A stretch of DNA of 64,000 nucleotides from a candidate division Kazan bacterium RIFCSPLOWO2_01_FULL_48_13 (GTDB lineage: Bacteria; Patescibacteriota; Kazan-3B-28; UBA10110). The position numbers were made by a program, and so were the translations under genes. Under the pieces are notes generated by a model. That model saw nothing but the letters and a program-made list of their open reading frames with translations, was not told the DNA's origin and made no database searches. The stretch spans positions 55,158 to 119,157 of the forward strand of contig METE01000001.1 in the NCBI GenBank assembly GCA_001771275.1, read 5' to 3'. Shown here one piece after another: positions 1,521 to 64,000 of this stretch. Numbering within the stretch: the first letter of the stretch is position 1; the number at the start of each line of letters is the position of its first letter.

Positions 1521-1744
1521 AGGTCAGAATTAATCCCGTTAGAGATCACCTAACGGCAACCCCGTTTCGAGCGGTGTAAATATTAACTTTATCAATAATA
1601 TCTCTATCTGTATCTCCTATAGTACTAAGTGTTACGATAGGTTGCCTATCTCTAACGGGATTAAGCGCTGTTTACATTATAGCCGAATGGTCATAACTAA
1701 AAAATCCCTCGCTACGAGAGATTTTTTAGGCTGTCTGCAAGCTA

Positions 1745-2458
1745 TAAGCCGAGTTCTGTCCCATCTCCAGTTCCTGGAACTGGGGATGGGGACGACTATC
1801 TATCTAGGCCTTATGTTGCCATAAGGCTCAAGCGTTGGGATCCCGGTCAGCCCGCCTTAACCCTCGGCGTTAGTAGCTGACATCAGGCCCACCCCAACTT
1901 GCACCGAATAGGGTTTACCGGGACACTTCGCTCACGCGGAGGCCTCGCGGGTAGCATACGGACACAAACTATCAGATTTAAACCTGATTTTCTGCGACAC
2001 TTAGGCTTTACCCCGCAACTTTTCACCTTTCCCCATCCCCAGTTTTGGACACAACCTCAAGAGAATTTTTTATTCTCTTGCGTATCTCCACGATTCCCGA
2101 TCCGTGGGATTTCAGCTTGGTTTCGCGAATCCGAGCATCATTTTGATCTACATGTAGTTCGGCATAAACCAGCCGTCAATCAGCATATTTATGCTTGGTG
2201 GATTGATTATTGCCCCTGCGATGCTCGGACAACCTGCGCTTGAGGTTGTTGGTCTCACCGGTATAATACTTTCCGGTAGATGGGTTGTATAGCATATAAA
2301 CCCAGTGCATAACCTCATTATAGATGTCCAAAACTGGAGATGGGTAGTATTGTCTCTGTGGCACTTTCCCTATCCATCTCCAGTTCCGAAAAACTGGGGA
2401 TGGACGGTTTCTGTTAGAAACTATCCGGGTTAATTTAAGGTGCTCGGACTTTCCTCCC
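1745..2458 (-). ncRNA. rnpB: Probable RNase P RNA (bacterial type A-like) with a large internal insertion
   Basis: Minus strand reads GGGAGGAAAGTCCGAGCACC (P4 5' strand) at 2455-2436 and TAACAGAAACC at about 2410. Further 3' it reads GGGGAAAGGTGAAAAGTTGCGGGGTAAAGCC (P10/11 region) and CGGTAAACCCTATTCGGTGCAAG. GCTTGAGCC...GGCCTAGATAGATAGTCGTCC[hairpin]GGACAGAACTCGGCTTATAG gives P15-P18 and the P4 3' strand. P4 shows covariation (CCGAG/CTCGG versus E. coli CCGGG/CCCGG). The gene is about 700 nt instead of about 380 because of roughly 350 nt inserted between the ACAGAAA element and P10. Confidence 0.5.
2176..2310 (-). pseudogene. GIY-YIG nuclease remnant (about 44 aa, C-terminally truncated) inside the rnpB insertion
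   Basis: The translation MHWVYMLYNPSTGKYYTGETNNLKRRLSEHRR carries the canonical GIY-YIG motif and then stops after about 44 aa. The upstream 50 aa of the 94-aa ORF-track entry is translated rnpB P4 sequence. Confidence 0.45.
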
Positions 2459-2640
2459 ATCCGTCAGCTGACGGACAGGCAGTCGTCCACTTACAAACAG
2501 CTCTGTTAGTATACGCCAAAATCCACGCCAATTCCAGCCCCTTGTCATCCTGGACCGACTGGCCAAGGGCCAAGTTCGGATTCAGGATCCAGGCCTGGAA
2601 TGACAGAATAAAGACGGGGAATATTATTGATTAAATTAGT
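2455..2640. repeat. Mosaic palindromic repeat modules (TCCGTCAGCTGACGGA hairpin; GTCATCCTGG...CAGGATCCAGGCCTGGAATGACA)
   Basis: The same modules recur at about 14.5 kb, 21.9 kb and 19.0 kb. Confidence 0.7.
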
Positions 2641-52367: not shown

Positions 52368-52373
52368 CAAAAT

Positions 52374-52484
52374 TTGGCAACGACCTACTTTCACAACCCG
52401 AAAGTTACTATCATCGGCGCTGAAGGGCTTAACTGCTGTGTTCGAGATGGGAACAGGTGTGGCCCCTTCGCGAGAGTCACCAAG
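52374..52484 (-). rRNA. rrf: 5S rRNA
   Basis: The minus strand aligns to bacterial 5S (ACTATCATCGGCGCTGAAGGGCTTAACTGCTGTGTTCGAGATGGGAACAGGTG as the reverse complement of the conserved core). Terminal helix I is TTGGTGAC/GTCGTTGCCAA. Confidence 0.75.
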
Positions 52485-53161: not shown

Positions 53162-53487
53162 AGAGTCAAGTGATCGGATTATTAGTACAACTCGGCTGAA
53201 TCCCTTACGGGACTTACACCTGTTGCCTATCAACCAAGTAGTCTACTTGGATCCTTATCCCGCCAATTTAAGGTTCGTATGGCATACCGTCAGCCAAAAT
53301 AGCAATGAGCTAAATTAGATGGAGTAAATCACACACCAGCCCTAAATTGGCGGGAGGGAAATTTATCTTGAGGTTGGCTTCACACTTAGATGCTTTCAGC
53401 GTTTATCCAATCCGAACATAGCTACCCAGCACTGCCCTTGGTAGAACAACTGGTATACCAGCGGTCCGTTCGCTTCGGTCCTCTCGT

Positions 53488-54292
53488 CACTTATTCCCCT
53501 ATCACTAGGAGCGTAGACTATATCTTCACCCATTCTGCTTTTGCAACAGAATTAGGGTGGCGGCGTATTACCTATATGTATCTGTCTGCTAAAATCAGCG
53601 GACTTTCCAATGACATATAAGTCCGTTCTGGTGTTTTTGAACAACAGAACAAGTCGTTACGGGGTCAAACCTAAAACTTTGTATAACTCCACTTTAGTCT
53701 TCTTTTTCTTAGTGACATAATTTTCACCCTGAATCACCAAGATCAGATCGATTAAAGTTTTTAGAGTCTTACTCTCCAGCATATTTTTGGCATTGTCAGA
53801 CAAGATTTCGGCTGCCGTATGTAACGCAACAGCTTGAATCTTTTTAAATCGGATAAATGGCAACAGACTCCCGAGAATATCTCGAACCTGTTGATACCCA
53901 TTGATACGAAGCTCGGTCATGCCATCGTTCCTCGTGGAATGATAGCCTATGCCCAAAACTTCGCGAATCCAATGCAGAGCCTTTGCATGGCGTGTGTCCT
54001 GATAGAAACAGATGGTGGTCATAAAACGAATTTTTGATCTTCCATCTTTACGCTTCTTGATTTGAAGCATCAGACTTCCATCTCCATCAAGGAAACCCGC
54101 TATGTACGCTAGATCCGTTTTAGATCGACTTCCCACGGTATTGTCTTATTTCGTTCTGGTCCTCAAGTGAATTGTACCATAATCGCAAGAACCGTTAGCA
54201 ATTATGGCTATCAACGGATACAGAGCTGATAAGATTCCACCGTTATTAGCCGCATTGTCATCGTAGATTACTCTACGAAGTAGCAATTCTTT
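53488..54292 (-). mobile_element. Group I intron 1 in 23S, inserted between ...GCTTCTAGT and ACGAGAGGACCG (immediately 5' of the sarcin-ricin loop core); encodes LAGLIDADG endonuclease
   Basis: The 5' exon ends in U and the intron ends in G (…AATAAGTG|ACGAGAGG). The intron contains the R/S-like core elements (rc of CAAGTCGTTACGGGG and AGACTATATCTTC) and ORF 53657..54136. Confidence 0.65.
53657..54136 (-). CDS. LAGLIDADG homing endonuclease (intron 1)
   Basis: [18 protein letters not shown] (LAGLIDADG motif); 159 aa. Confidence 0.8.
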   Translation of the reverse strand: MGSRSKTDLAYIAGFLDGDGSLMLQIKKRKDGRSKIRFMTTICFYQDTRHAKALHWIREVLGIGYHSTRNDGMTELRINGYQQVRDILGSLLPFIRFKKIQAVALHTAAEILSDNAKNMLESKTLKTLIDLILVIQGENYVTKKKKTKVELYKVLGLTP

Positions 54293-54355
54293 ACTAGAAG
54301 CGACTCCCCTCAAATTTCCTACGTCAACAGCAGATAGAGACCGAACTGTCTCACG

Positions 54356-55099
54356 CATGATCTTCCACTATTACTAATGGCATAGACTATATCTTCTTCC
54401 TTTTAGCCCACCGGCTAAGGAGGAGTTGGCGTGTGATAATCGACATAACAACTATCGACTATCTCATCGATCCACTGGCCTTCAGCGAATCGAATCAGTC
54501 GTTACGGGGAAAGAGATTATGTTCTTGCAGAAATTGTTTAACCGTTGCTCGCGTGGTCGTGCGTTTCTTGGAGTAATTGTACGCTGCGGTTTCATCCACC
54601 AGAGCCGCTCTTTTGAGCAACTCGGTGGGAGAGATTCTTTTGGGTGAAGACTTAATTCCCATTACACATAGGTTGATAACTTTTTGCGCAATGGTCTTTT
54701 TTAGCCGCAGATATGGTAACAATTTGGTTAAAACTTCGTAGACCGACTGATACCCCACAATGGTGTATTCAGCCATATGATCATTACGAACACGAACATA
54801 TCCATACTTCAGTTGGCCCTTGAGCCATTCGAGAAAATATTTTTTGCTTTCTTTTTGATAGAAAACAACACTCACTCGAATCTGATAGCCATGAACATAT
54901 CCACTCCGTTTAACCAGTTGCGCCATAATGCAACCGTCTCCGTCTAAGAATCCCGCAATGTAGGCAAATAACTTTTCTGCCATAACCTCGATCTTCCCTC
55001 GGGGTTGCCCTCTCTTCGTTCGGTATAAAAGAGTAGGGGTTCTCCGATATAAGCCAAATTTATTGTATCGCATTTCTGCGATAGAACGCAATGTAACTT
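54356..55099 (-). mobile_element. Group I intron 2 in 23S at the GGGTTCAGAACGT|CGTGAGACAG site (E. coli about 2593); encodes LAGLIDADG endonuclease
   Basis: Exon junction read directly; the intron ends in G. S-like element (rc of AGACTATATCTTC at 54385) and R-like element (rc of CAGTCGTTACGGGG). Confidence 0.7.
54495..55091 (-). CDS. LAGLIDADG homing endonuclease (intron 2)
   Basis: [18 protein letters not shown]. The ORF-track start at 55091 is a TTG codon; ATG alternatives are MRYNKF (55073) or MAEKLF (54983). Confidence 0.75.
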
Positions 55100-55132
<33 letters not shown>

Positions 55133-55182
55133 TGGCGAACAGCCAAACCCTTCCCACCTGCTTCAGCGGGAGGATGCGACGG

Positions 55183-56078
55183 GCCGACATCGTATGATGA
55201 TGTTCCATTATTACTAATGGCACAGACTATATCTTCACCCTGCGCCCGGATGTGGGTCTTTAGACCTACCATCCTTGGGTTGGTATAGCAGGGGCTGGCG
55301 TATTACCCTTTCATAAATGAAAGAGTTTCCCTTTTCAGGTCAGTCGTTACGGGGTCATACATAGCTTATATCGGAAGCATGGGAGAATGTGCGGCTTAAT
55401 AATTTCCAACATCGTTTTAGTACTGTCTGTACTAACACGAATTCTCCAATACTTCTTATCTCGATTGAGCAAACTTTTTATCCTGAATGTTCTCCACAAT
55501 ATTGTCTGTAAGAGCTGCTGCTCTGCCATACTAAATTGTTGAGTGTTGAGATAAAAAGCCGAACGGATCTTGGAGCCATCATCCATAAACCATACGGCTA
55601 AAGACAATGGATCAAGTTCGAGATTAGACGGCACACTTTTCTTCCCTGACCCATAGAACCAATTATAGTAACTGGTAATGGTAGGAATACTTTGTGTGGT
55701 AAACCGATACGCAACACGGCTCCCGTTACCTGGACGGGTTTTGGGCGGGGTTAGAACATACAATCGAAAATGCTGCCATTTCCAATCCACATATTCTCGA
55801 TACTTAAACGAATGATTCACTTCCAATAGAGCATCTATGCGCGTGCCCTGCCGGCGTAATGTCCCATCGCCAAGCAAAGTCCCAACCAAAATTGCGTGTT
55901 GAGCTGATGATAGACTTCCCACGGTATTGCCCCCGTTCATATTATCCAATCCTGGACAAGGCCAGGATGATGATGTAAAGAATACACCATTATTTTACCA
56001 CTTGATGAACGGTTGGGTTCCACCGTTATAAGCCAAATTTTTGGTACAGAATCACTTCTGTAGCACCCCAATGTCTTA
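55183..56078 (-). mobile_element. Group I intron 3 in 23S within GTTTGGCACCT|CGATGTCGG (E. coli about 2500); encodes LAGLIDADG endonuclease
   Basis: Exon blocks GTTTGGCACCT (56079-56089) and CGATGTCGGCC (55174-55182) are separated by about 0.9 kb. S-like element (rc of AGACTATATCTTCACCC at 55228). Exact junction uncertain by 1-2 nt. Confidence 0.6.
55347..55949 (-). CDS. LAGLIDADG homing endonuclease (intron 3)
   Basis: HAILVGTLLGDGTLRRQG (LAGLIDADG-type motif); 200 aa. Confidence 0.65.
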   Translation of the reverse strand: MDNMNGGNTVGSLSSAQHAILVGTLLGDGTLRRQGTRIDALLEVNHSFKYREYVDWKWQHFRLYVLTPPKTRPGNGSRVAYRFTTQSIPTITSYYNWFYGSGKKSVPSNLELDPLSLAVWFMDDGSKIRSAFYLNTQQFSMAEQQLLQTILWRTFRIKSLLNRDKKYWRIRVSTDSTKTMLEIIKPHILPCFRYKLCMTP

Positions 56079-56626
56079 AGGTGCCAAACCGGGTCGTCGA
56101 TGTGGACTCTTGGACCCGATAAGCCTGTTATCCCCGGGGTAACTTTTATCTGTTGAGCTTCGGCGCACCCATGTGCAACCGTCGGATCACTATATCCTGC
56201 TTTCGCATCTGCTTGACTTATAGGTCTCGCAGTTAAGCTCCCATATACTATTGCGCTATCACACCGGTTTCCATTCGGTGCTAGGGAACCTTTGAACGCC
56301 TCCGTTACTCTTTGGGAGGCAACCGCCCCAGTTAAACTACCCATCAAACACTGTCCCCATACCAGGTAATGGCACAGGTTAGAATCAAGCGAGAGTAAGG
56401 GTGGTATTTCAACGGTGACTCCACCTCGACTAGCGTCGAGGCTTCTAAGTCTCCCACCTATCCTACACACACAAACACTTAATCCAATATCAGATTGTAG
56501 TAAAGCTCCACGGGGTCTTTTTGTCTTGCTGCTGATATCCGGCATCTTCACCGGCAATGTAGTTTCACCGAGTCCCTCGTTGAGACAGTCTTCAGACCGT
56601 TCCGCTATTCGTGCGGGTCGGAACTT

Positions 56627-56928
56627 CACGAACAAAATTATTTTGTGAGTGAACCCCGCACTTTATGCATTGCATGATAGTGCGCGGGTTACCACTAATT
56701 TCGTCATCTCAATTTTTCAATTGGGCGTGGACTATATCTTCCCCGAATGTTCTTCAATACATCGGAGGATGGCGTGTAGTCTCTACGGGGTCAAACCCAA
56801 AACCTGAATATAGTGAAGATTGTTTGGTTTGGGTCGACTTCCCACGGTATCACCATACTGCCCCACACGGACAGGTTAGGCTCCACCGTTACAGCCATCA
56901 GTTTAACGTCGGGCTTGTTTCTCGACTC
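56627..56928 (-). mobile_element. ORF-less group I intron 4 in 23S at CCTTGTCGGGT|AAGTTCCGACC (E. coli about 1931)
   Basis: 302 nt; begins GAGTCGAG and ends ...TGTTCGTG; contains GAAGATATAGTCC (S element) and CCCCGTAGAGACTACACGCC. Confidence 0.65.
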
Positions 56929-56946
56929 ACCCGACAAGGAATTTCG

Positions 56947-57682
56947 CTCGGAGTCTTACTTAATTCACATTAAGTTGCCAACATATTGAGCTGTTGGCAC
57001 TGCATATCGCTATGCAGATGGGACTATATCTTCTCGACCTTTTGTGATCGAGCTTGGCGTGTAGTCTCTGAGGATTCTGATCAGTTTTATCCGAGATTTT
57101 TTATGGTTCATCAGTTGTGTAAGTCTTGCCATCTTTACCATACCCTCAACATTGAGGTGTTCTTTTTTAGACATAGACCTTACACACTGAGCAAACAACG
57201 CAAAGTCATTTCGCTTTGATGTTTGCAATGCACTTTTCTCGAAGAAGGGTATTATCACTTTTAACAAGTCTGCTCTTTTCCCAACTTTATAGCTGAATAA
57301 ATCTTCTTTATGGTTGTCATGCCTACGATTTCTATAAATCTGGCCGACACCGAAGAAAGATTTGATTCTTTCGAGCGCGGCTAAACCGCGCTCACCTTGC
57401 GTCACTGCAAAGTGATGGGAAATTTGGTAACCTGTTTTATACCCCCGGCGGATTCTGGTTTTTTCTTGACGATCAGGTTGTCTCGCAAAATTAATTGAGA
57501 AACATCCTTCTCCGTCAACAAAACCTATAATCCAACCGATCAGCCTTTCCTGCTGATTGTCTGCAGGAGATACATTGTCACTGATTTTCATTCAGACAAG
57601 GAATAGTGTTCACTTGTCTTAATTGTATCTCAGTAGTACTCCATACACCAGAGTTTCCAGCATATAGCCAAGTTTTACTAAG
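56947..57682 (-). mobile_element. Group I intron 5 in 23S at CCTAAGGTAG|CGAAATTCC (E. coli about 1917); encodes LAGLIDADG endonuclease
   Basis: Exon junction read directly; the intron ends in G; contains the rc of GGGACTATATCTTC. Confidence 0.7.
57010..57591 (-). CDS. LAGLIDADG homing endonuclease (intron 5)
   Basis: LIGWIIGFVDGEGCFSINF; 193 aa. Confidence 0.75.
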   Translation of the reverse strand: MKISDNVSPADNQQERLIGWIIGFVDGEGCFSINFARQPDRQEKTRIRRGYKTGYQISHHFAVTQGERGLAALERIKSFFGVGQIYRNRRHDNHKEDLFSYKVGKRADLLKVIIPFFEKSALQTSKRNDFALFAQCVRSMSKKEHLNVEGMVKMARLTQLMNHKKSRIKLIRILRDYTPSSITKGREDIVPSA

Positions 57683-57691
57683 GCAGCTTTC

Positions 57692-57722
<31 letters not shown>

Positions 57723-58728
57723 ATTCACCAGGGCTTAATTTCAAAGCTTTTCCATCTCCAGTTCCAAAGAACTGGGGATGGATAACCTATCCACGTGACC
57801 TTCTGGCATTGGGCAAGCGTCAGTCCCTATACATCCTCTTTCGAGTTAGCAGAGACCTGTGTTTTTGCTAAACAGTCGCCTGAAGTCTTTTGCTGTGGCC
57901 CCGCCATTTTAAAGTTCGTGCGTGGTTATCACCAACCAAACTAACTCAACTGTTAATTGATCGGTAAGCTATCACACTAACCCTAAAATGGCGGGGCAGT
58001 CCTTATCCCTAAGTTACGGACGCTATTTTGCCGAGTTCCTTAACGAGGGTTCTCTCGATCGCCTTGGTCTACTCGACCCACCCACCTGTGTCGGTTTGCG
58101 GTACGAGTGCTGATTGTTCTCGCAGAGAGGGTTTTCCGGTCAGTTTGGCTCAGTTAAATCGCCTGCCGGCAAGCCGGCAAACTTTCCATCACTGATCATG
58201 GTTACCCCTAAAATTAGGGAGATCTCCCGGATTTGCCAAAGAGATCCCACTAGCAGCTTAGACGGGCAAACCTCTACCCGCTCAACCTACCATCCTGCGT
58301 CACCCCATAGCTAGGCGCGGTGCATCTGCAACCAAGTGTCCATCCCGGTAAACCGGAACAACCTCCTTGGCGTAGAACGCAACGAACCTGTGGCGAACAA
58401 ACAGCAGTACAGGAATATTAACCTGTTATCCATCGCCTACGCCTTGCGGCCTCGGCTTAGGTCTGACTAACCCTGAGATGATTAACATAGCCCAGGAAAC
58501 CTTGGGTTTACGGCGCGCAGGTTTTTCACCTGCGTTAATACGTTACTCGTGCCAACATTCTCACTTCTGCCCGCTCCACCACACCTCACGGTGCAACTTC
58601 ACAGCCGAGCAGAACGCTCTCCTACCACCACGCTAAAAGCGTGATTCGCAACTTCGGTGTTAGGCTTGAGCCCCGGTAAATTTTGGGCGCGAACACACAT
58701 CGACCAGTGAGCTGTTACGCTATCTTTA

Positions 58729-58759
<31 letters not shown>

Positions 58760-59336
58760 TTGTCTATGTGCCCTCACTTCCTTTAACACTTAGCCTAAAC
58801 TGAGGGACCTTAGTTGGCGATCTGGGCTTTTCCCCTCTCGACAATGGCGCTTAGCCGTCACTGTCTGACTCCCATGCTATTGACTCACAAGTATTCGGAG
58901 TTTAATTGGACGCGGTACGGTTTCCCGCCCGAATCCATTCAGTAGCTCTACCACTTGGAGGAACACATGAGGCTATACCTCAATATATTTCGGAGAGAAC
59001 CAGCTATCTCCGGGTTCGATTGGAATTTCTCCGCTAATCACAGTTCATCCCCTCACTTTTCAACGTAAGTGGGTGCGGCCCTCCACTGCTTTTTAGGGCA
59101 GCTTCAGCCTGACCATAATTAGATCACCCGGTTTCGGGTCTAATCCCAGCAACTTAAACGCGCTATTCACACTCGCTTTCGCTACGGCTCCGCCCTCTAA
59201 CAGGGCTTAACCTTGCTACTGAGATTAACTCGTTGGCTCATTCTACAAAAGGCACGCCGTCATCCGTCAGCTGACGGACTCCGACTCTTAGACGGGCTAT
59301 TGGTTTCAGGTACTATTTCACTCCCCTCATCGGGGG

Positions 59337-59376
<40 letters not shown>

Positions 59377-60117
59377 GAGAAGTAGTATTTAGCCTTACCA
59401 GATGGTCCTGGCAATTTCCGACAGAATTTCACGGGTTCCGTCGTACTTAAGTTTGGTTACTCGGAGTTATTTTCTTTTCGCGTACAGGACTATCACCTTC
59501 TCTGGTGGCCCTTTCCATGGACCTTCTGCTAAGAAAATAATTTTTTACTCCTGACTTGCTCTACAGATCAAGATGTAACGACTTATAACCCTCTCGTTGC
59601 AAGGCCTGTAGGCTTTAACACAACAAGAGTTTAGGCCATTCCCTTTTCGCTCGCCGCTACTAAGGGAATAAACATTTGTTCTCTTTTCCTCACGGTACTA
59701 AGATGTTTCAGTTCCCGCGGTTCCCTCTCGCAAATCTATGTATTCAATCTGCAAGTATCCGCCCTGTTTCTACGCACAACTTCTACGCCTTTGCTCGTCA
59801 CGACTTCGTCACAAGAGCTTAGGCGCAAAAATAATTTTGCGCAGAAATAGGGCGGATGGATTGCTCCATTCGGACATCCCCGGCTCAAAGGTTGCTTGAC
59901 ACCTCCCCGAGGCTTATCGCAGTCTGCTACGTCCTTCATCGGCTACTTCTCCCAAGGCATTCACCAATAGCCCTTGAGTAACTTGACTCTGTTCTCAAGA
60001 GCTTAGTCTTAATCGGCGATCACAAGAAACGACATTTCTTATGATTTTGTTATTTTTGTGGCTTTACTGCAAATTGTTAAGTTGCACGCAAGTTCAAATA
60101 TAAAAATCTTTTTCCCC

Positions 60118-60228
60118 TTGTCATCCTGAAAACACTTTACTGCCGTAGGCCTACTATAAATAACTTATTCAGGATCCAGGCCCAACCCATCCGGCGTCCG
60201 TCAGCTGACGGACTTTGGAGGGTAACCC
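60118..60228. repeat. Mosaic palindromic repeat cluster upstream of the 23S operon
   Basis: GTCATCCTGAAAACACTTTACTGCCGTAGGCCTACTATAAATAACTTATTCAGGATCCAGGCCC...GTCCGTCAGCTGACGGAC. Confidence 0.7.
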
Positions 60229-60749
60229 TTAAAAGGTAAAAAGGGTTAAAAAATAAGGGCCTCAGCCCTTTGCTTTTTAAAAAGGCGGAGTAAATTTAAC
60301 TCTTAAACCAGACCGATTTTAAATACAACGACACCAAGCTAAAACTCTTAAAATAAGCTTCGATGGTTTGCAATGTGTTCAAGATTGATTTGATCTTAAA
60401 ATCTATTCGTTTTGTTTGCTTTTGCATAATATCAGAGGGGTTTAGGTAATGCAATAGTATTACACCCATTATCTGCCATCTTGTCAATAAAGTAGCCGCC
60501 AGAGCTGAAAAAACCCTTCCAAACACCGTCATTCTGGCTTGCCCAGAATCTTACACTACCCAGATGACTCCCCCTGTATATAGTAGAGTACACTATATAT
60601 ATGGACCCCGTAGAGAAATTTAGAACGCCTTGGGCGCAGGATATAGACTTTGTGGGGTATCATCAGGGTAGTCGATTAATCATGTCCGAGACTAAACGGG
60701 ACAATGCCCAAGTCGACTAAAGGCTATATCTTCTAAATTCTTCTACGGG

Positions 60750-61022
60750 GTGGACGACCTCAAAACTACCCTATCCAAGCACTTCTCAGCCAAGCGGAAT
60801 CCCCACCTTCACTCCGACTTACATTTATTAGTAGATGAGGCCCGGACCTTATTTAAAGAGAAGGCGGTTAAAGGCCCCGGCTCGTTTGCTTTTTATCTGG
60901 GGTTTTTTAAGAGATTAGGAGTACAAAAAGTCCGCCAACTATTGGCGGAAGTAAAAGATAGCAATGCTACCGATTCTGGAAAACTCTTTTGGTGGAAAAT
61001 CAAACAAGAGTTAAAAAAATAA
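60750..61022 (+). CDS. Hypothetical protein
   Basis: 90-aa ORF, Lys-rich, no motif recognised. Confidence 0.3.
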   Translation: MDDLKTTLSKHFSAKRNPHLHSDLHLLVDEARTLFKEKAVKGPGSFAFYLGFFKRLGVQKVRQLLAEVKDSNATDSGKLFWWKIKQELKK

Positions 61023-61330
61023 CTCTTCCTATTACCTTTTGCCACCATTTGGTCCGGCAAACGGTGGCACCAAACCGGCCGCCAGTCGTCGGGCTTGTTC
61101 GTCTAACAAAATTAGCTTTCTTCGCTTTCGCTGAACTCCTCGTTTCACTCCTCAAACAACAGCTTCGCCTGCGCTAATTTTGTTGACTCAATACAGCCCT
61201 CCTCCGATGGCGTAAACAACCACGCTTGACTAGCTACATGACTATTCGTATGATTAACCTGTGCTTGTGGGCGCAAGCCCCGTTCGGCTAAAGAATTTCT
61301 CAAGCCGAAGACAAGCACACCTAAACAGAT

Positions 61331-61849
61331 TTATTCGTCTTCCAGGGCCGCGGTGTTCTCACCAGCGGTTCTTGTCTTATTCTGGCCCTGTTGATTATAT
61401 TTCCATCTGGGAATAACACTCCAAAAATGGAAGTTGCCATCACCAACACGCCGCACTATTACTCGGCACTTAATCCTCTTATCTTTGTCGAGCGACTCAA
61501 AGGCATAGTATTGAACCATACTGGTCTTTCTGAACCCATCATGCCCAACTTTACCTACGGGCTGTAAAACCGTCCTATAGTATTGCAGGGTCCCAGATGC
61601 TCGTATTGTGTCGACAACGTATGTTATCAACAGTTTAAACTTTATGAGTTGCATTATTTTTGGACGCTCAGACCGCGCACCGTCATATCTCAAGTGGTGC
61701 CAACCATCCGAGGTAAAACTGACTGTATTTTGCAAATACGGACAGGTGATTGGGGGCAAACCATTATAATAGCTCTCGGCCTTTTGCTTAATTTTAAGAA
61801 ATGCCGGTCGATCAAATTGAATTTTATTTACCTTGGATGGTACATACAT
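61331..61849 (-). CDS. Hypothetical protein
   Basis: 172-aa ORF, no motif recognised. Confidence 0.35.
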   Translation of the reverse strand: MYVPSKVNKIQFDRPAFLKIKQKAESYYNGLPPITCPYLQNTVSFTSDGWHHLRYDGARSERPKIMQLIKFKLLITYVVDTIRASGTLQYYRTVLQPVGKVGHDGFRKTSMVQYYAFESLDKDKRIKCRVIVRRVGDGNFHFWSVIPRWKYNQQGQNKTRTAGENTAALEDE

Positions 61850-62018
61850 GTCAGATATTGATCTTCAAAATAATTCAAATTTCGGAAGTTATTGGGCCCG
61901 GTCGAGGGGGTTGGTGAAGCGGAGGTAGAAGCCGAAGGGGTCTTTCATGCCCTAAGTATACGCCTTGCCAGAATCCGCCTCCAGAGCTACAATAATGCTT
62001 CCGAGGAGGTGAAGCCGG

Positions 62019-62600
62019 ATGAACACCCTAAGCGTCGTGCTTAGCTGCATCATCCCATTCGTTCACTTCTCCGCGTTCATTATCTACTACAGAGCAGTAG
62101 CGAGAGGCCAATCCACCCTTTACACCGCCATGTGGGTGCTCACCATCGTCAGCTCCATCCTAAATGGAGTAACCTATTTGGCGATGACCAGAAGCCTGGT
62201 AATGAGCGCCACACCAGTCACCAACGCCGTCGCCGTATGCGGCGTGTTAATTATTGGCTGGCGGTATCGGAAGTTCCGACCATTCCAAACGCTAGACTGG
62301 GTGGTACTGGGAATTGGATCGGTAGTAATTGGACTATGGATAACATCTGGCAACGCCAGCTACGCGAATCTATTACTCCAATTAGCATTGATGTTGGCGA
62401 TCATCCCGGCATACGCAGGAGTATGGCAAGGCGAACGAGAAAATCCATGGCCCTGGGCCCTGTGGTCCGTTTCTCACATCATTAACCTATCCATCCTGTT
62501 TATGCTCTGGAACGACAGCTACAATGCGTTCGTATCGCCCATTTTGTACATCATCGCCAATACTGGCATGGTGATGCTGATAATGCGGAGAAGATCATAG
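62019..62600 (+). CDS. Hypothetical 6-TM membrane protein
   Basis: 193 aa with six predicted hydrophobic helices. Confidence 0.4.
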   Translation: MNTLSVVLSCIIPFVHFSAFIIYYRAVARGQSTLYTAMWVLTIVSSILNGVTYLAMTRSLVMSATPVTNAVAVCGVLIIGWRYRKFRPFQTLDWVVLGIGSVVIGLWITSGNASYANLLLQLALMLAIIPAYAGVWQGERENPWPWALWSVSHIINLSILFMLWNDSYNAFVSPILYIIANTGMVMLIMRRRS

Positions 62601-62630
62601 GCCGGCAATGCAAATTGACCGGCCCATTTT

Positions 62631-63233
62631 TTATTTAATACCTTTAATTAGCTCGACAAGTTCGGGGAATTCGGGTTGGGTAAAGTGATCGCCGCCCTGG
62701 ATAGTTACGAGCTTGGCATTGGGCAATTCTTTGAGATATTTTTCGGCATGGCTGTAAGGAACAATCGGGTCTGCGTCGCCGTGGACTATATATATGTTGC
62801 TGCATTGCTGGGCAAGTTGAGCCAAGGGTTTTGTCAGCACAAAATCAGCCAACGGGGGCTCGAGGCCTTCACTATCGTATGGCGGCGAAACCAAAACAAC
62901 GGCTTTGATTTTCTTTGGAAAAATGTTTTCCGAGAGATATTTCGGTAAAAATATTCCGCCCAAAGAGTGGCCAACTAGAATCAAATCGTCATCGAGGAAC
63001 GGAAACATTTTTTCAAACCAAATCTTCCATTCTTCGTAGCGAGCGTTTTCCGAGTTCGGCATCTCGGGCGTAAACACCTGATACCCCTCCCCTAATCGTT
63101 CCGCCAAAGTTCTCTTCCACCGTTTTTTGGGGAGAAACTCCTCGATCTCGGGCTGGTACGCTTTGAGGTTTTTTATATACTCCTCGTACGATCTAAAATC
63201 TTCTCCGCCGTGAATCAATACAACCTGCTGCAT
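62631..63233 (-). CDS. Alpha/beta serine hydrolase, RBBP9/YdeN-like
   Basis: LVGHSLGG nucleophile elbow; VHGDADPIVP; 200 aa. Confidence 0.6.
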   Translation of the reverse strand: MQQVVLIHGGEDFRSYEEYIKNLKAYQPEIEEFLPKKRWKRTLAERLGEGYQVFTPEMPNSENARYEEWKIWFEKMFPFLDDDLILVGHSLGGIFLPKYLSENIFPKKIKAVVLVSPPYDSEGLEPPLADFVLTKPLAQLAQQCSNIYIVHGDADPIVPYSHAEKYLKELPNAKLVTIQGGDHFTQPEFPELVELIKGIK

Positions 63234-63243
63234 ATATTTTGAG

Positions 63244-63765
63244 TTACAAATAATTTAATATTTCTGGGAAAGGAGATTCGCCGAAGTGGCCCTTGTCTGG
63301 CAGAATGATCGGTTTAACTTCCAGCAGGTTGGCCCACTGCCGAGCGTGCTTAACTGGTACATAGGGATCGTCTTCGGAGCCGATGACCGTAAACTCCGTA
63401 TCAATCAGCGCTTGAGCCGGGATACCCCACGACTTCTCCAAGAAATTATTGATATCCGGTATCTCAATTATCTTTTCAAACGGAGCAGCAACTAATATAA
63501 CCTGCCCGGGTTTGCCGCCCGCTTCAACATACCGCATGGCTAAAGTTCCACCAAGACTGTGGCCGATGACGGTTCCTTCACCATTGGTTTTGATGGCCGC
63601 CTGCAGAGTCGCCATCCACTCGTCGAGTTGCGGCGCCTCGGTATGCGGCAGTAACGGGACGATAACTTTACCTCCCAGCTTTTCTAATTCCGCCTTCAGC
63701 CACGGAAACCAGTTTTCTTCGGGATAACCGTTATACCCATGCAAAATGTAATAGATTTTATGCAT
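63244..63765 (-). CDS. Alpha/beta serine hydrolase, RBBP9/YdeN-like (tandem paralog)
   Basis: YILHGYNG...VIGHSLGG...IGSEDDPYVP...DKGHF. Confidence 0.6.
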   Translation of the reverse strand: MHKIYYILHGYNGYPEENWFPWLKAELEKLGGKVIVPLLPHTEAPQLDEWMATLQAAIKTNGEGTVIGHSLGGTLAMRYVEAGGKPGQVILVAAPFEKIIEIPDINNFLEKSWGIPAQALIDTEFTVIGSEDDPYVPVKHARQWANLLEVKPIILPDKGHFGESPFPEILNYL

Positions 63766-64000
63766 TGCGACGGATAAAGAGAACCTTGTTGCCGTCGGGA
63801 TCCAGGAGGCTAAACTCTTTGCCCCACGGCTTTTCGGTTATCTCGGTGTATAGTTTTAGCCCTATATCTTTTATTTTCTGGTAGGTAGTTTCAATTTGAG
63901 AATCGGAGATAAACACTGTCTGGTGTCCCGGTTTCTCCCGTTCCTCAGAGGTAGTTTTAACCCCCAGCCGACCGCCGCCCTGGAATATAAACGAAACGAA

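Follow-up and report, generated by a model that had tools for sequence, protein, structure and literature searches.

Here we describe an 805-nt insert in the single 23S rRNA gene seen in a 64,000-nt stretch of a candidate division Kazan genome (GCA_001771275.1, contig METE01000001.1, forward-strand positions 55,158 to 119,157), which was analysed as a whole and is referred to below as the window. The insert (window 53488..54292, minus strand) is a group I intron whose covarying core is complete and which belongs to the IA type by its P7.1/P7.2 hallmark, and it carries the gene for a LAGLIDADG homing endonuclease of the I-CreI family. It lies between U2656 and A2657 (site L2656) in the sarcin-ricin loop (SRL), and is very probably a mobile group I intron of IA structural type at this junction. 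The reading is carried by the exact junction, the covarying architecture of the ribozyme, the predicted fold and catalytic residues of the endonuclease, the recurrence of the intron in the candidate phyla radiation (CPR), and the presence among its relatives of full, decayed and lost open reading frames (ORFs).

The window encodes a threonyl-tRNA synthetase with 100% identity to the enzyme of candidate division Kazan bacterium RIFCSPHIGHO2_01_FULL_49_10, and the endonuclease and another protein of the window are also found on ENA metagenome contigs. The host is therefore a bacterium of the CPR (Patescibacteria).

Insertion site and exon junctions

Run in gathering mode on the window, Rfam missed all five introns of the 23S gene and forced the whole large-subunit (LSU) rRNA model onto 56029..59988, and the exons were therefore mapped by BLAST with Escherichia coli 23S rRNA. 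E. coli positions 2595-2658 match window 54355..54292 and positions 2658-2760 match 53487..53385, the two blocks abutting in the query. Together with a reading of the minus strand, this delimits an insert of exactly 805 nt (54292..53488) between collinear exons, and the coordinates given in a preliminary description of this DNA proved exact to the base. On the minus strand, the 5' exon ends ...GAGGGGAGTCGCTTCTAGT with T at 54293 (the 23S sequence upstream of the junction reads ...GAGGGGAGUCGCUUCUAGU, with its last base at the same position), the insert runs from AAAGAATTGC at 54292 to ...CTCCTAGTGATAGGGGAATAAGTG at 53488, and the 3' exon ACGAGAGGACCGAAGCGAACGG begins at 53487.

The E. coli copy used is 2905 nt long, with a numbering shift of +2 at helix 69 and of +1 at the SRL. 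Because of this shift of 1-2 nt, site numbers were taken from landmark nucleotides of the standard numbering, namely the pseudouridines 1911, 1915 and 1917, together with U2585, A2602, G2655 and A2660. Numbered in this way, the intron interrupts the bulged-G motif of the SRL (A2654 G2655 U2656 A2657 C2658 G2659 A2660) at U2656|A2657, and not one nucleotide before A2654, where the preliminary description had placed it.

Both exon ends are clear from the sequence and the BLAST alignment. The end of the 5' exon (54293..54310, minus strand) comprises the 5' strand of helix 95 (CGCUUC) and UAGU (2653-2656), which pairs with the internal guide sequence of the intron. The start of the 3' exon (53466..53487, minus strand) comprises ACGAGAGGACC, which begins at A2657 and includes the GAGA tetraloop with A2660, and the 3' strand of helix 95 (GAAGCG). 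The spliced exon junction would read ...CUUCUAGU-ACGAGAGG..., and joining of the exons rebuilds the stem of helix 95 (CGCUUC/GAAGCG) together with the sarcin-ricin loop AGUACGAGAGGACC.

Homologous introns at the same junction

The general group I model of Rfam matched the window copy weakly, and homologues were therefore gathered. Species-representative genomes were scanned for the exact pattern "G + ACGAGAGGACCG....GRAC", in which a base other than U2656 precedes A2657. The matches listed comprise at least 120 loci, in at least 76 of which an insert with a final G interrupts a 23S gene exactly at this junction; also among the matches listed are two U2656G variants without insert and 42 chance matches in GC-rich genomes. 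The hosts of the insert-bearing 23S genes (at least 76) are almost all Patescibacteria.

The whole intron was delimited in 56 of these genes, giving, with the window copy, a set of 57 introns of 296-889 nt. The conserved blocks UUGCUACU, GGCUAAUAACGGUG, AAUACCGUGGGAAGU, GACCCCGUAACGACU, UAAUACGCC and AAGAUAUAGUCU are common to all 57, and the introns vary mainly in the size of a single loop, of 17 to 528 nt. A full ORF, with its GUG start and UAA stop at the same places, is present in 32 introns; the ORF is decayed in 15 and absent from 10, and this mixture is the one expected of the homing-endonuclease cycle of gain, degeneration and loss.

These homologues also bear on whether the window gene might be a non-functional 23S copy, or an assembly chimera, from which the insert is never removed. 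Its metagenome-assembly origin and its five inserts could raise such a suspicion, but the idea is scarcely credible: the inserts of at least 76 other genomes use the identical junction, all exon segments of the window gene are collinear with E. coli 23S rRNA and have conserved functional sites, and the stretch bearing the endonuclease gene was assembled independently on an ENA contig. Moreover, 23S genes with several introns are usual in the CPR, where 82% contain inserts, with up to 16 per gene (PMC11270868).

Three contigs with the same L2656 intron have labels from outside the CPR, namely L032 (Elusimicrobiota metagenome-assembled genome, MAG), L099 (labelled uncultured Gammaproteobacteria) and L117 (Smithella sp. 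MAG). The 23S exons of L099 are among those most similar to the Kazan 23S of the window (75.8%), which suggests mis-binning or mislabelling and not spread beyond the CPR. Two further loci, L015 (Vicinamibacteria MAG, CAWIMD010000003.1) and L100 (CAWEHU010000015.1), have no insert, and their 23S sequence reads ...CUUAGG/CCUAGG-ACGAGAGG, with G replacing the universally conserved U2656 of the bulged-G motif. As the two belong to one series of MFD long-read MAGs, a systematic assembly error is possible.

Structure of the ribozyme

A full model including the P3/P7 pseudoknot was written out, and its pairs were counted per cell across 51 homologues, the set to which the pairing figures below refer. 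Pairing is 95-100% for P1-P4 and P6-P9, as against 0-67% overall, and 19-67% for the P3-P9 core, in a control with the partner shifted by one column, and multiple compensatory pair types occur in P2, P3, P6a, P8 and P9. The window copy agrees with the consensus at all counted pairs. RNAalifold of the 51 homologues, trimmed of their ORFs, recovers P1, P2, P3, P4, P5, P6, P8 and P9. The core elements of a group I intron are all found: the P/Q pairing ACGGU/ACCGU, R (CCGUAACGACU), S (AAGAUAUAGUCU), the U·G pair at the 5' splice site and the terminal G.

The elements are described here from the 5' end, with all coordinates on the minus strand. The internal guide sequence GCUA (intron nt 9-12, 54281..54284) forms P1 with exon UAGU, placing U2656·G9 at the 5' splice site. 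All four pairs are present in 51/51 sequences (100%) and the same P1 is returned by RNAalifold; being invariant, it provides no covariation information. P2 is the hairpin UCGUAGA-GUAA-UCUACGA with a GNRA loop (54261..54278), in which 98.3% of cells are paired with up to six pair types per position. The next segment (54239..54253) contains the 5' strand of P3 (GCGGC, 54253..54249), J3/4 and the 5' strand of P4 (ACGGU, 54243..54239). P3 is 96.9% paired with alternation of GC, UA, AU and CG, and P4 is 98.8% paired and nearly invariant. P5 (UCUUAU/AUAAGA) and a variable extension that differs between homologues occupy 54144..54234, with 76.8% pairing and UA/CG covariation at the closing pairs.

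The 3' strand of P4 (ACCGU, 54139..54135) continues into the 5' strand of P6 (GGG-AA-GUC), together spanning 54127..54139, and the block CCGTGGGAAGT is kept here in 57/57 introns, those lacking an ORF included. P6 is 98.7% paired and nearly invariant. Beyond the P6 terminal loop, the segment 53652..53677 holds the 3' strands of P6a and P6 (GUUUUAGGUU-U-GAC-CCC), J6/7 and the 5' strand of P7 (A, a bulged C, then GACU), with GACCCCGTAACGACT likewise kept in 57/57 introns. Pairing in P6a is 86%, and its compensatory types are numerous; P7 is 100% paired, with a single A-U to G-C double change, in L089, across the bulged nucleotide. Between P7 and the 3' strand of P3 lie the hairpins P7.1 and P7.2 (53571..53651, from RNAfold of the segment), and RNAfold gives exactly two hairpins in this place in 56/57 introns, the window copy among them.

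The 3' strand of P3 (GCCGC, 53564..53560) is followed by the P8 hairpin CACCC...GGGUG, together spanning 53527..53564; P8 is 95.3% paired, and both helices show compensatory changes. J8/7 and the 3' strand of P7 (AAGAUAUAGUCU, 53515..53526) make up the classical group I 'S' element, in which the invariant AGUC pairs with GACU. The intron closes (53488..53511) with the P9 hairpin CUCCUA-GUGA-UAGGGG, the tail AAUAAGU and the terminal guanosine (omega-G). P9 is 99.7% paired and alternates between CG, UG, AU, UA and GC at five of its six pairs. The terminal G, at 53488, stands directly before A2657; its presence in the homologues is circular as evidence, as the search pattern itself demanded G.

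The preliminary description favored a group I intron over a 16-nt expansion of the rRNA, and P9 bears this out: CTCCTAGTGATAGGGG is the P9 hairpin, with its GNRA loop and its compensatory changes. The sequence behind the expansion alternative, CUCCUAGUGAUAGGGG, is likewise P9 with its GNRA loop. A 16-nt expansion of the SRL after the second CTCCTAGT was accordingly rejected, the sequence being a hairpin that varies and covaries in homologues.

Another kind of insert to be weighed is an RNase III-type intervening sequence (IVS), which is excised without ligation and leaves a fragmented 23S rRNA, as in Salmonella, in helix 45 of Coxiella, and in others. Bacterial 23S genes do contain IVSs, and some of the short inserts in the CPR are suspected to be of this kind (PMC11270868). 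For the present insert an IVS is highly improbable, since it has a complete covarying group I core and not a simple terminal stem, and its two ends do not pair together. IVSs are known from helices 25 and 45, and not from helix 95, where the insert lies, and a break of the chain in the SRL amounts to the lethal alpha-sarcin lesion.

The endonuclease gene and its product

The P6 terminal loop of the group I intron contains an ORF (53657..54136, minus strand) for a single-domain LAGLIDADG homing endonuclease of 159 aa, of the I-CreI family; the preliminary description had already ascribed a LAGLIDADG enzyme to this ORF. The protein matches Pfam LAGLIDADG_1 (PF00961) with 35.2 bits against a cut-off of 23.1, and its sequence matches in the PDB include the natural single-domain chains I-CreI, I-MsoI and I-CvuI (E about 1e-9 to 1e-13). 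An AlphaFold2 model (pLDDT 89, pTM 0.86) is aligned by Foldseek to I-CreI with TM 0.81-0.85 over about 151 columns, nearly the whole protein, and to I-CreI, I-CvuI and I-MsoI taken together with E about 1e-11 and TM 0.74-0.85 over about 150 aligned columns. The predicted fold is alpha-beta-beta-alpha-beta-beta-alpha, and in the model it is superposable on I-CreI. There is one LAGLIDADG motif, in which D19 aligns to D20 of I-CreI, and D17, G18, D19, G20, Q46 and K98 are invariant among 39 homologues.

Homologues of the endonuclease number more than 3000. The best 120 of these are 69-100% identical to it and almost all 159-160 aa long, and the named ones among them belong to Parcubacteria-type CPR lineages. 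The enzyme of the L2593 intron in the same 23S gene is 44% identical to the L2656 enzyme.

The gene is embedded in the ribozyme core at both ends. Its GUG start (54136..54134) straddles the junction of the P4 3' strand and P6, its UAA stop (53659..53657) lies in J6/7, and both codons are conserved core sequence that is retained by introns without an ORF. The codons for about the first and last ten residues (MGSRSK... and ...LGLTP) pair with each other as the P6/P6a stem (54117..54134 with 53661..53677), so that the start codon should be inaccessible once the ribozyme has folded. We tentatively propose, as a possibility that we hold at somewhat less than even, that ribozyme folding and endonuclease translation are mutually exclusive and so constitute a switch between splicing and mobility, in conjunction with a specificity of the enzyme for SRL-coding DNA.

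The putative target, by analogy with I-CreI-type enzymes, is the SRL-coding DNA ...GTCGCTTCTAGTACGAGAGGACCGAAGCG... / GAGTCGCTTCTAGTACGAGAGGACCGAAGCGAAC. If this is true, nearly all bacterial 23S rDNA would in principle be open to cleavage by one enzyme family, directed as it is at the DNA for the universally conserved SRL, and an enzyme recognizing such DNA could be of interest to meganuclease engineers.

Proposed splicing and homing

Removal of CPR rRNA inserts from transcripts has been reported (PMC11270868). In the precursor rRNA of the window gene, P1 would arise from exon UAGU and the guide GCUA, with the pair U2656·G at the splice site, after which the P3-P9 core would fold. An external guanosine would attack after U2656, the terminal G (53488) would then take the G-binding site in P7, and ligation of the exons would remake the sarcin-ricin loop AGUACGAGAGGACC. 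The 159-aa protein, acting as a homodimer, would cut intron-less 23S rDNA at the SRL-coding sequence, and double-strand-break repair would copy the intron into the cut gene (homing). We infer splicing in vivo, as well as translation, activity and target of the endonuclease, from what is established for group I introns and I-CreI-type enzymes.

Several observations weigh against this scheme. The exon portion of P1 is 4 bp only, and a search of the L2656 intron for a P10 pairing with the 3' exon found none. Rfam RF00028 aligns to 53495..53618 of the window intron with 25.1 bits (E 0.005) and does not reach its gathering score of 50. No obvious Shine-Dalgarno-like sequence is present upstream of the GUG, which would itself be base-paired in the folded ribozyme. 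In the intron-less 22-bp site, the best two-fold symmetry is centred on the insertion point (6/11 half-site positions, the best of 22 centres), and this symmetry is weak and not significant alone, although a symmetry so placed is what a homodimeric enzyme would lead one to expect; counted by hand, the native I-CreI site is symmetric at 7/11 half-site positions. Finally, the target oligonucleotides of the CPR enzyme I-ShaI and of a 'Kazan enzyme' represent 23S sequences other than the SRL site (PMC11270868, supplement).

The low RF00028 score of the window copy is explained by the ORF and P7.1/P7.2, which break the alignment. Homologues at the same site that lack the ORF score 30-56 bits with Rfam Intron_gpI (E 1e-11 to 7e-4), and L083 (55.8) passes the gathering score.

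The short P1, the missing P10 and the sub-threshold Rfam score are also what might be seen in a decayed relic, with a ribozyme dependent on a host factor or a LAGLIDADG maturase, or with an endonuclease inactive in homing. LAGLIDADG maturases are known (PMC11270868), and loss of or damage to the ORF in 25/57 homologous introns makes decay common in the family. Even so, we consider a relic unlikely, since the window copy fits the family consensus at all core pairs counted and its ORF is full length with every invariant residue kept, while the existence of relatives at 81-91% identity suggests recent activity.

Status of the insertion site

The insert, at L2656, occupies a site that is missing from the classical lists of rDNA homing sites. 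The preliminary description had remarked on this absence and suggested that the site might be new or rare; the check that it proposed, mapping against catalogued insertion positions, yields a match to position 2657 (23IS14) in the survey of Tsurumaki, Sato, Saito and Kanai (2024, J Bacteriol, PMC11270868). In that work, 348 CPR 23S genes were surveyed, 82% of which had inserts, and 14 hot spots were defined. LAGLIDADG_1 genes predominate at 1917, 1931, 1952, 2593, 2604 and 2657 (23IS6-8 and 23IS12-14), and position 2657 is a frequent CPR site with group I introns and LAGLIDADG_1 genes (PMC11270868). The '2657' of the survey is the U2656|A2657 junction, off by one in the same way as its '1952' is L1951.

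With its junction at U2656|A2657, its Kazan host, its group I core and its LAGLIDADG_1 ORF, the 805-nt intron, delimited by the BLAST breakpoints and with core helices backed by the 51 homologues, has all the attributes of 23IS14. The supposed novelty of the site is thus contradicted by the published 23IS14, by the same junction in at least 76 23S genes and by the more than 3000 homologues of the endonuclease. Full-text literature searches for an 'L2656' intron returned unrelated papers only, those for '2656' or '2657' with intron returned Tsurumaki et al. as the sole relevant paper, and a survey of archaeal group I introns (PMC6125680) does not mention positions 2655-2657 in its main text.

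The intron is therefore a further copy of a widespread CPR family at a site published in 2024, and there is little new in it. What goes beyond the catalogue is the IA-type structure, the placement of the ORF in the P6 loop with start and stop codons in the conserved core, and the series of endonuclease gain, decay and loss; these structural details are unsurprising.

Other introns of the 23S gene and its surroundings

The 23S gene (window 53340..59988, minus strand) has five inserts, at L1931, L1951, L2500, L2593 and L2656. The L1931 intron (about 56949..57686) has a 193-aa LAGLIDADG_1 ORF, the L1951 intron (56627..56928, 302 nt) has no ORF, the L2500 intron (55193..56078) has a 200-aa LAGLIDADG_2 ORF, and the L2593 intron (54356..55099) has a 198-aa LAGLIDADG_1 ORF, all on the minus strand. 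The L1931 and L1951 introns are separated by a micro-exon of 20 nt (1932-1951, window 56948..56929).

The L2500 intron has the conserved core found also in the L2656 intron, and its guide sequence is contiguous in textbook fashion. GGGUGC pairs with exon GCACCU as P1 (6 bp) and GACAUUG with CGAUGUC of the 3' exon as P10 (7 bp), and the junctions are therefore fixed at U2500| and |C2501. The last 12 nt of the intron (AACAUCAUCAUA) nevertheless contain no G and end in A. Five of eight related L2500 introns in other genomes end in G, and the other three (L061, L070 and L115) in A. The lack of a terminal guanosine would be an unusual feature for a natural group I intron, and nothing else noticed in the window is as unusual as this.

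A 5S rRNA gene (52372..52484) comes after the 23S gene. On the upstream side of the 23S gene, the 4 kb at 59989..64000 contain no 16S rRNA gene or tRNA, only protein ORFs, two of which look like alpha/beta-hydrolases from a reading of their translations. The rRNA operon thus appears to be split, with 23S-5S unlinked from 16S. The window also contains a class A RNase P RNA (1729..2498, minus strand, 159 bits) of 770 nt, as compared with the 367 positions of the model. The excess is mostly an insertion of ~290 nt in the P12 loop region, with a second of ~56 nt further on, and in a check for an intron no Rfam family gave a match inside these insertions, the P12 one included.

Comparison with known systems

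The L2656 intron is like 23IS14 in its junction, intron class, endonuclease Pfam family and host radiation; the site is treated there (PMC11270868) at catalogue level only, whereas the secondary structure, subgroup and ORF placement come from the present analysis. The RIFCSPHIGHO2... name of the matching Kazan genome marks a MAG from a groundwater metagenome, the type of public CPR genome used by such surveys. The only biochemically characterized LAGLIDADG enzyme from a CPR rRNA intron is I-ShaI, a single-domain protein like the L2656 enzyme, which dimerizes and cuts its own insertion site (PMC11270868).

Outside the CPR, introns of self-splicing type at conserved 23S sites, with or without LAGLIDADG genes, include Cbu.L1917 and Cbu.L1951 of Coxiella, the L1931 introns of Thermotoga and Simkania, and the cyanobacterial introns at L1917, L1931 and L2593. 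None of these lies in helix 95 or the SRL. Three of the sites, L1931, L1951 and L2593, are occupied by introns in the window gene as well.

The closest mechanistic analogue is Cr.LSU with I-CreI, at L2593 in the chloroplast 23S gene of Chlamydomonas reinhardtii (relatives I-MsoI and I-CvuI). Cr.LSU belongs to subgroup IA3 and has its ORF in the P6 loop. In both systems the 3' domain of 23S rRNA is interrupted by a group I intron that encodes an enzyme of ~160 aa with a single motif, of the homodimer type; the catalytic Asp, Gln and Lys of I-CreI align with those of the L2656 enzyme, and the predicted fold of the latter matches I-CreI at the TM-scores given above. The two differ in host, chloroplast versus bacterium, and in site, Cr.LSU lying in the peptidyl-transferase region (L2593) and the window intron in the SRL (L2656). 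Identity between I-CreI and the L2656 enzyme is about 24-29%, and, given this low identity and the different site, the DNA target of the L2656 enzyme must differ from that of I-CreI.

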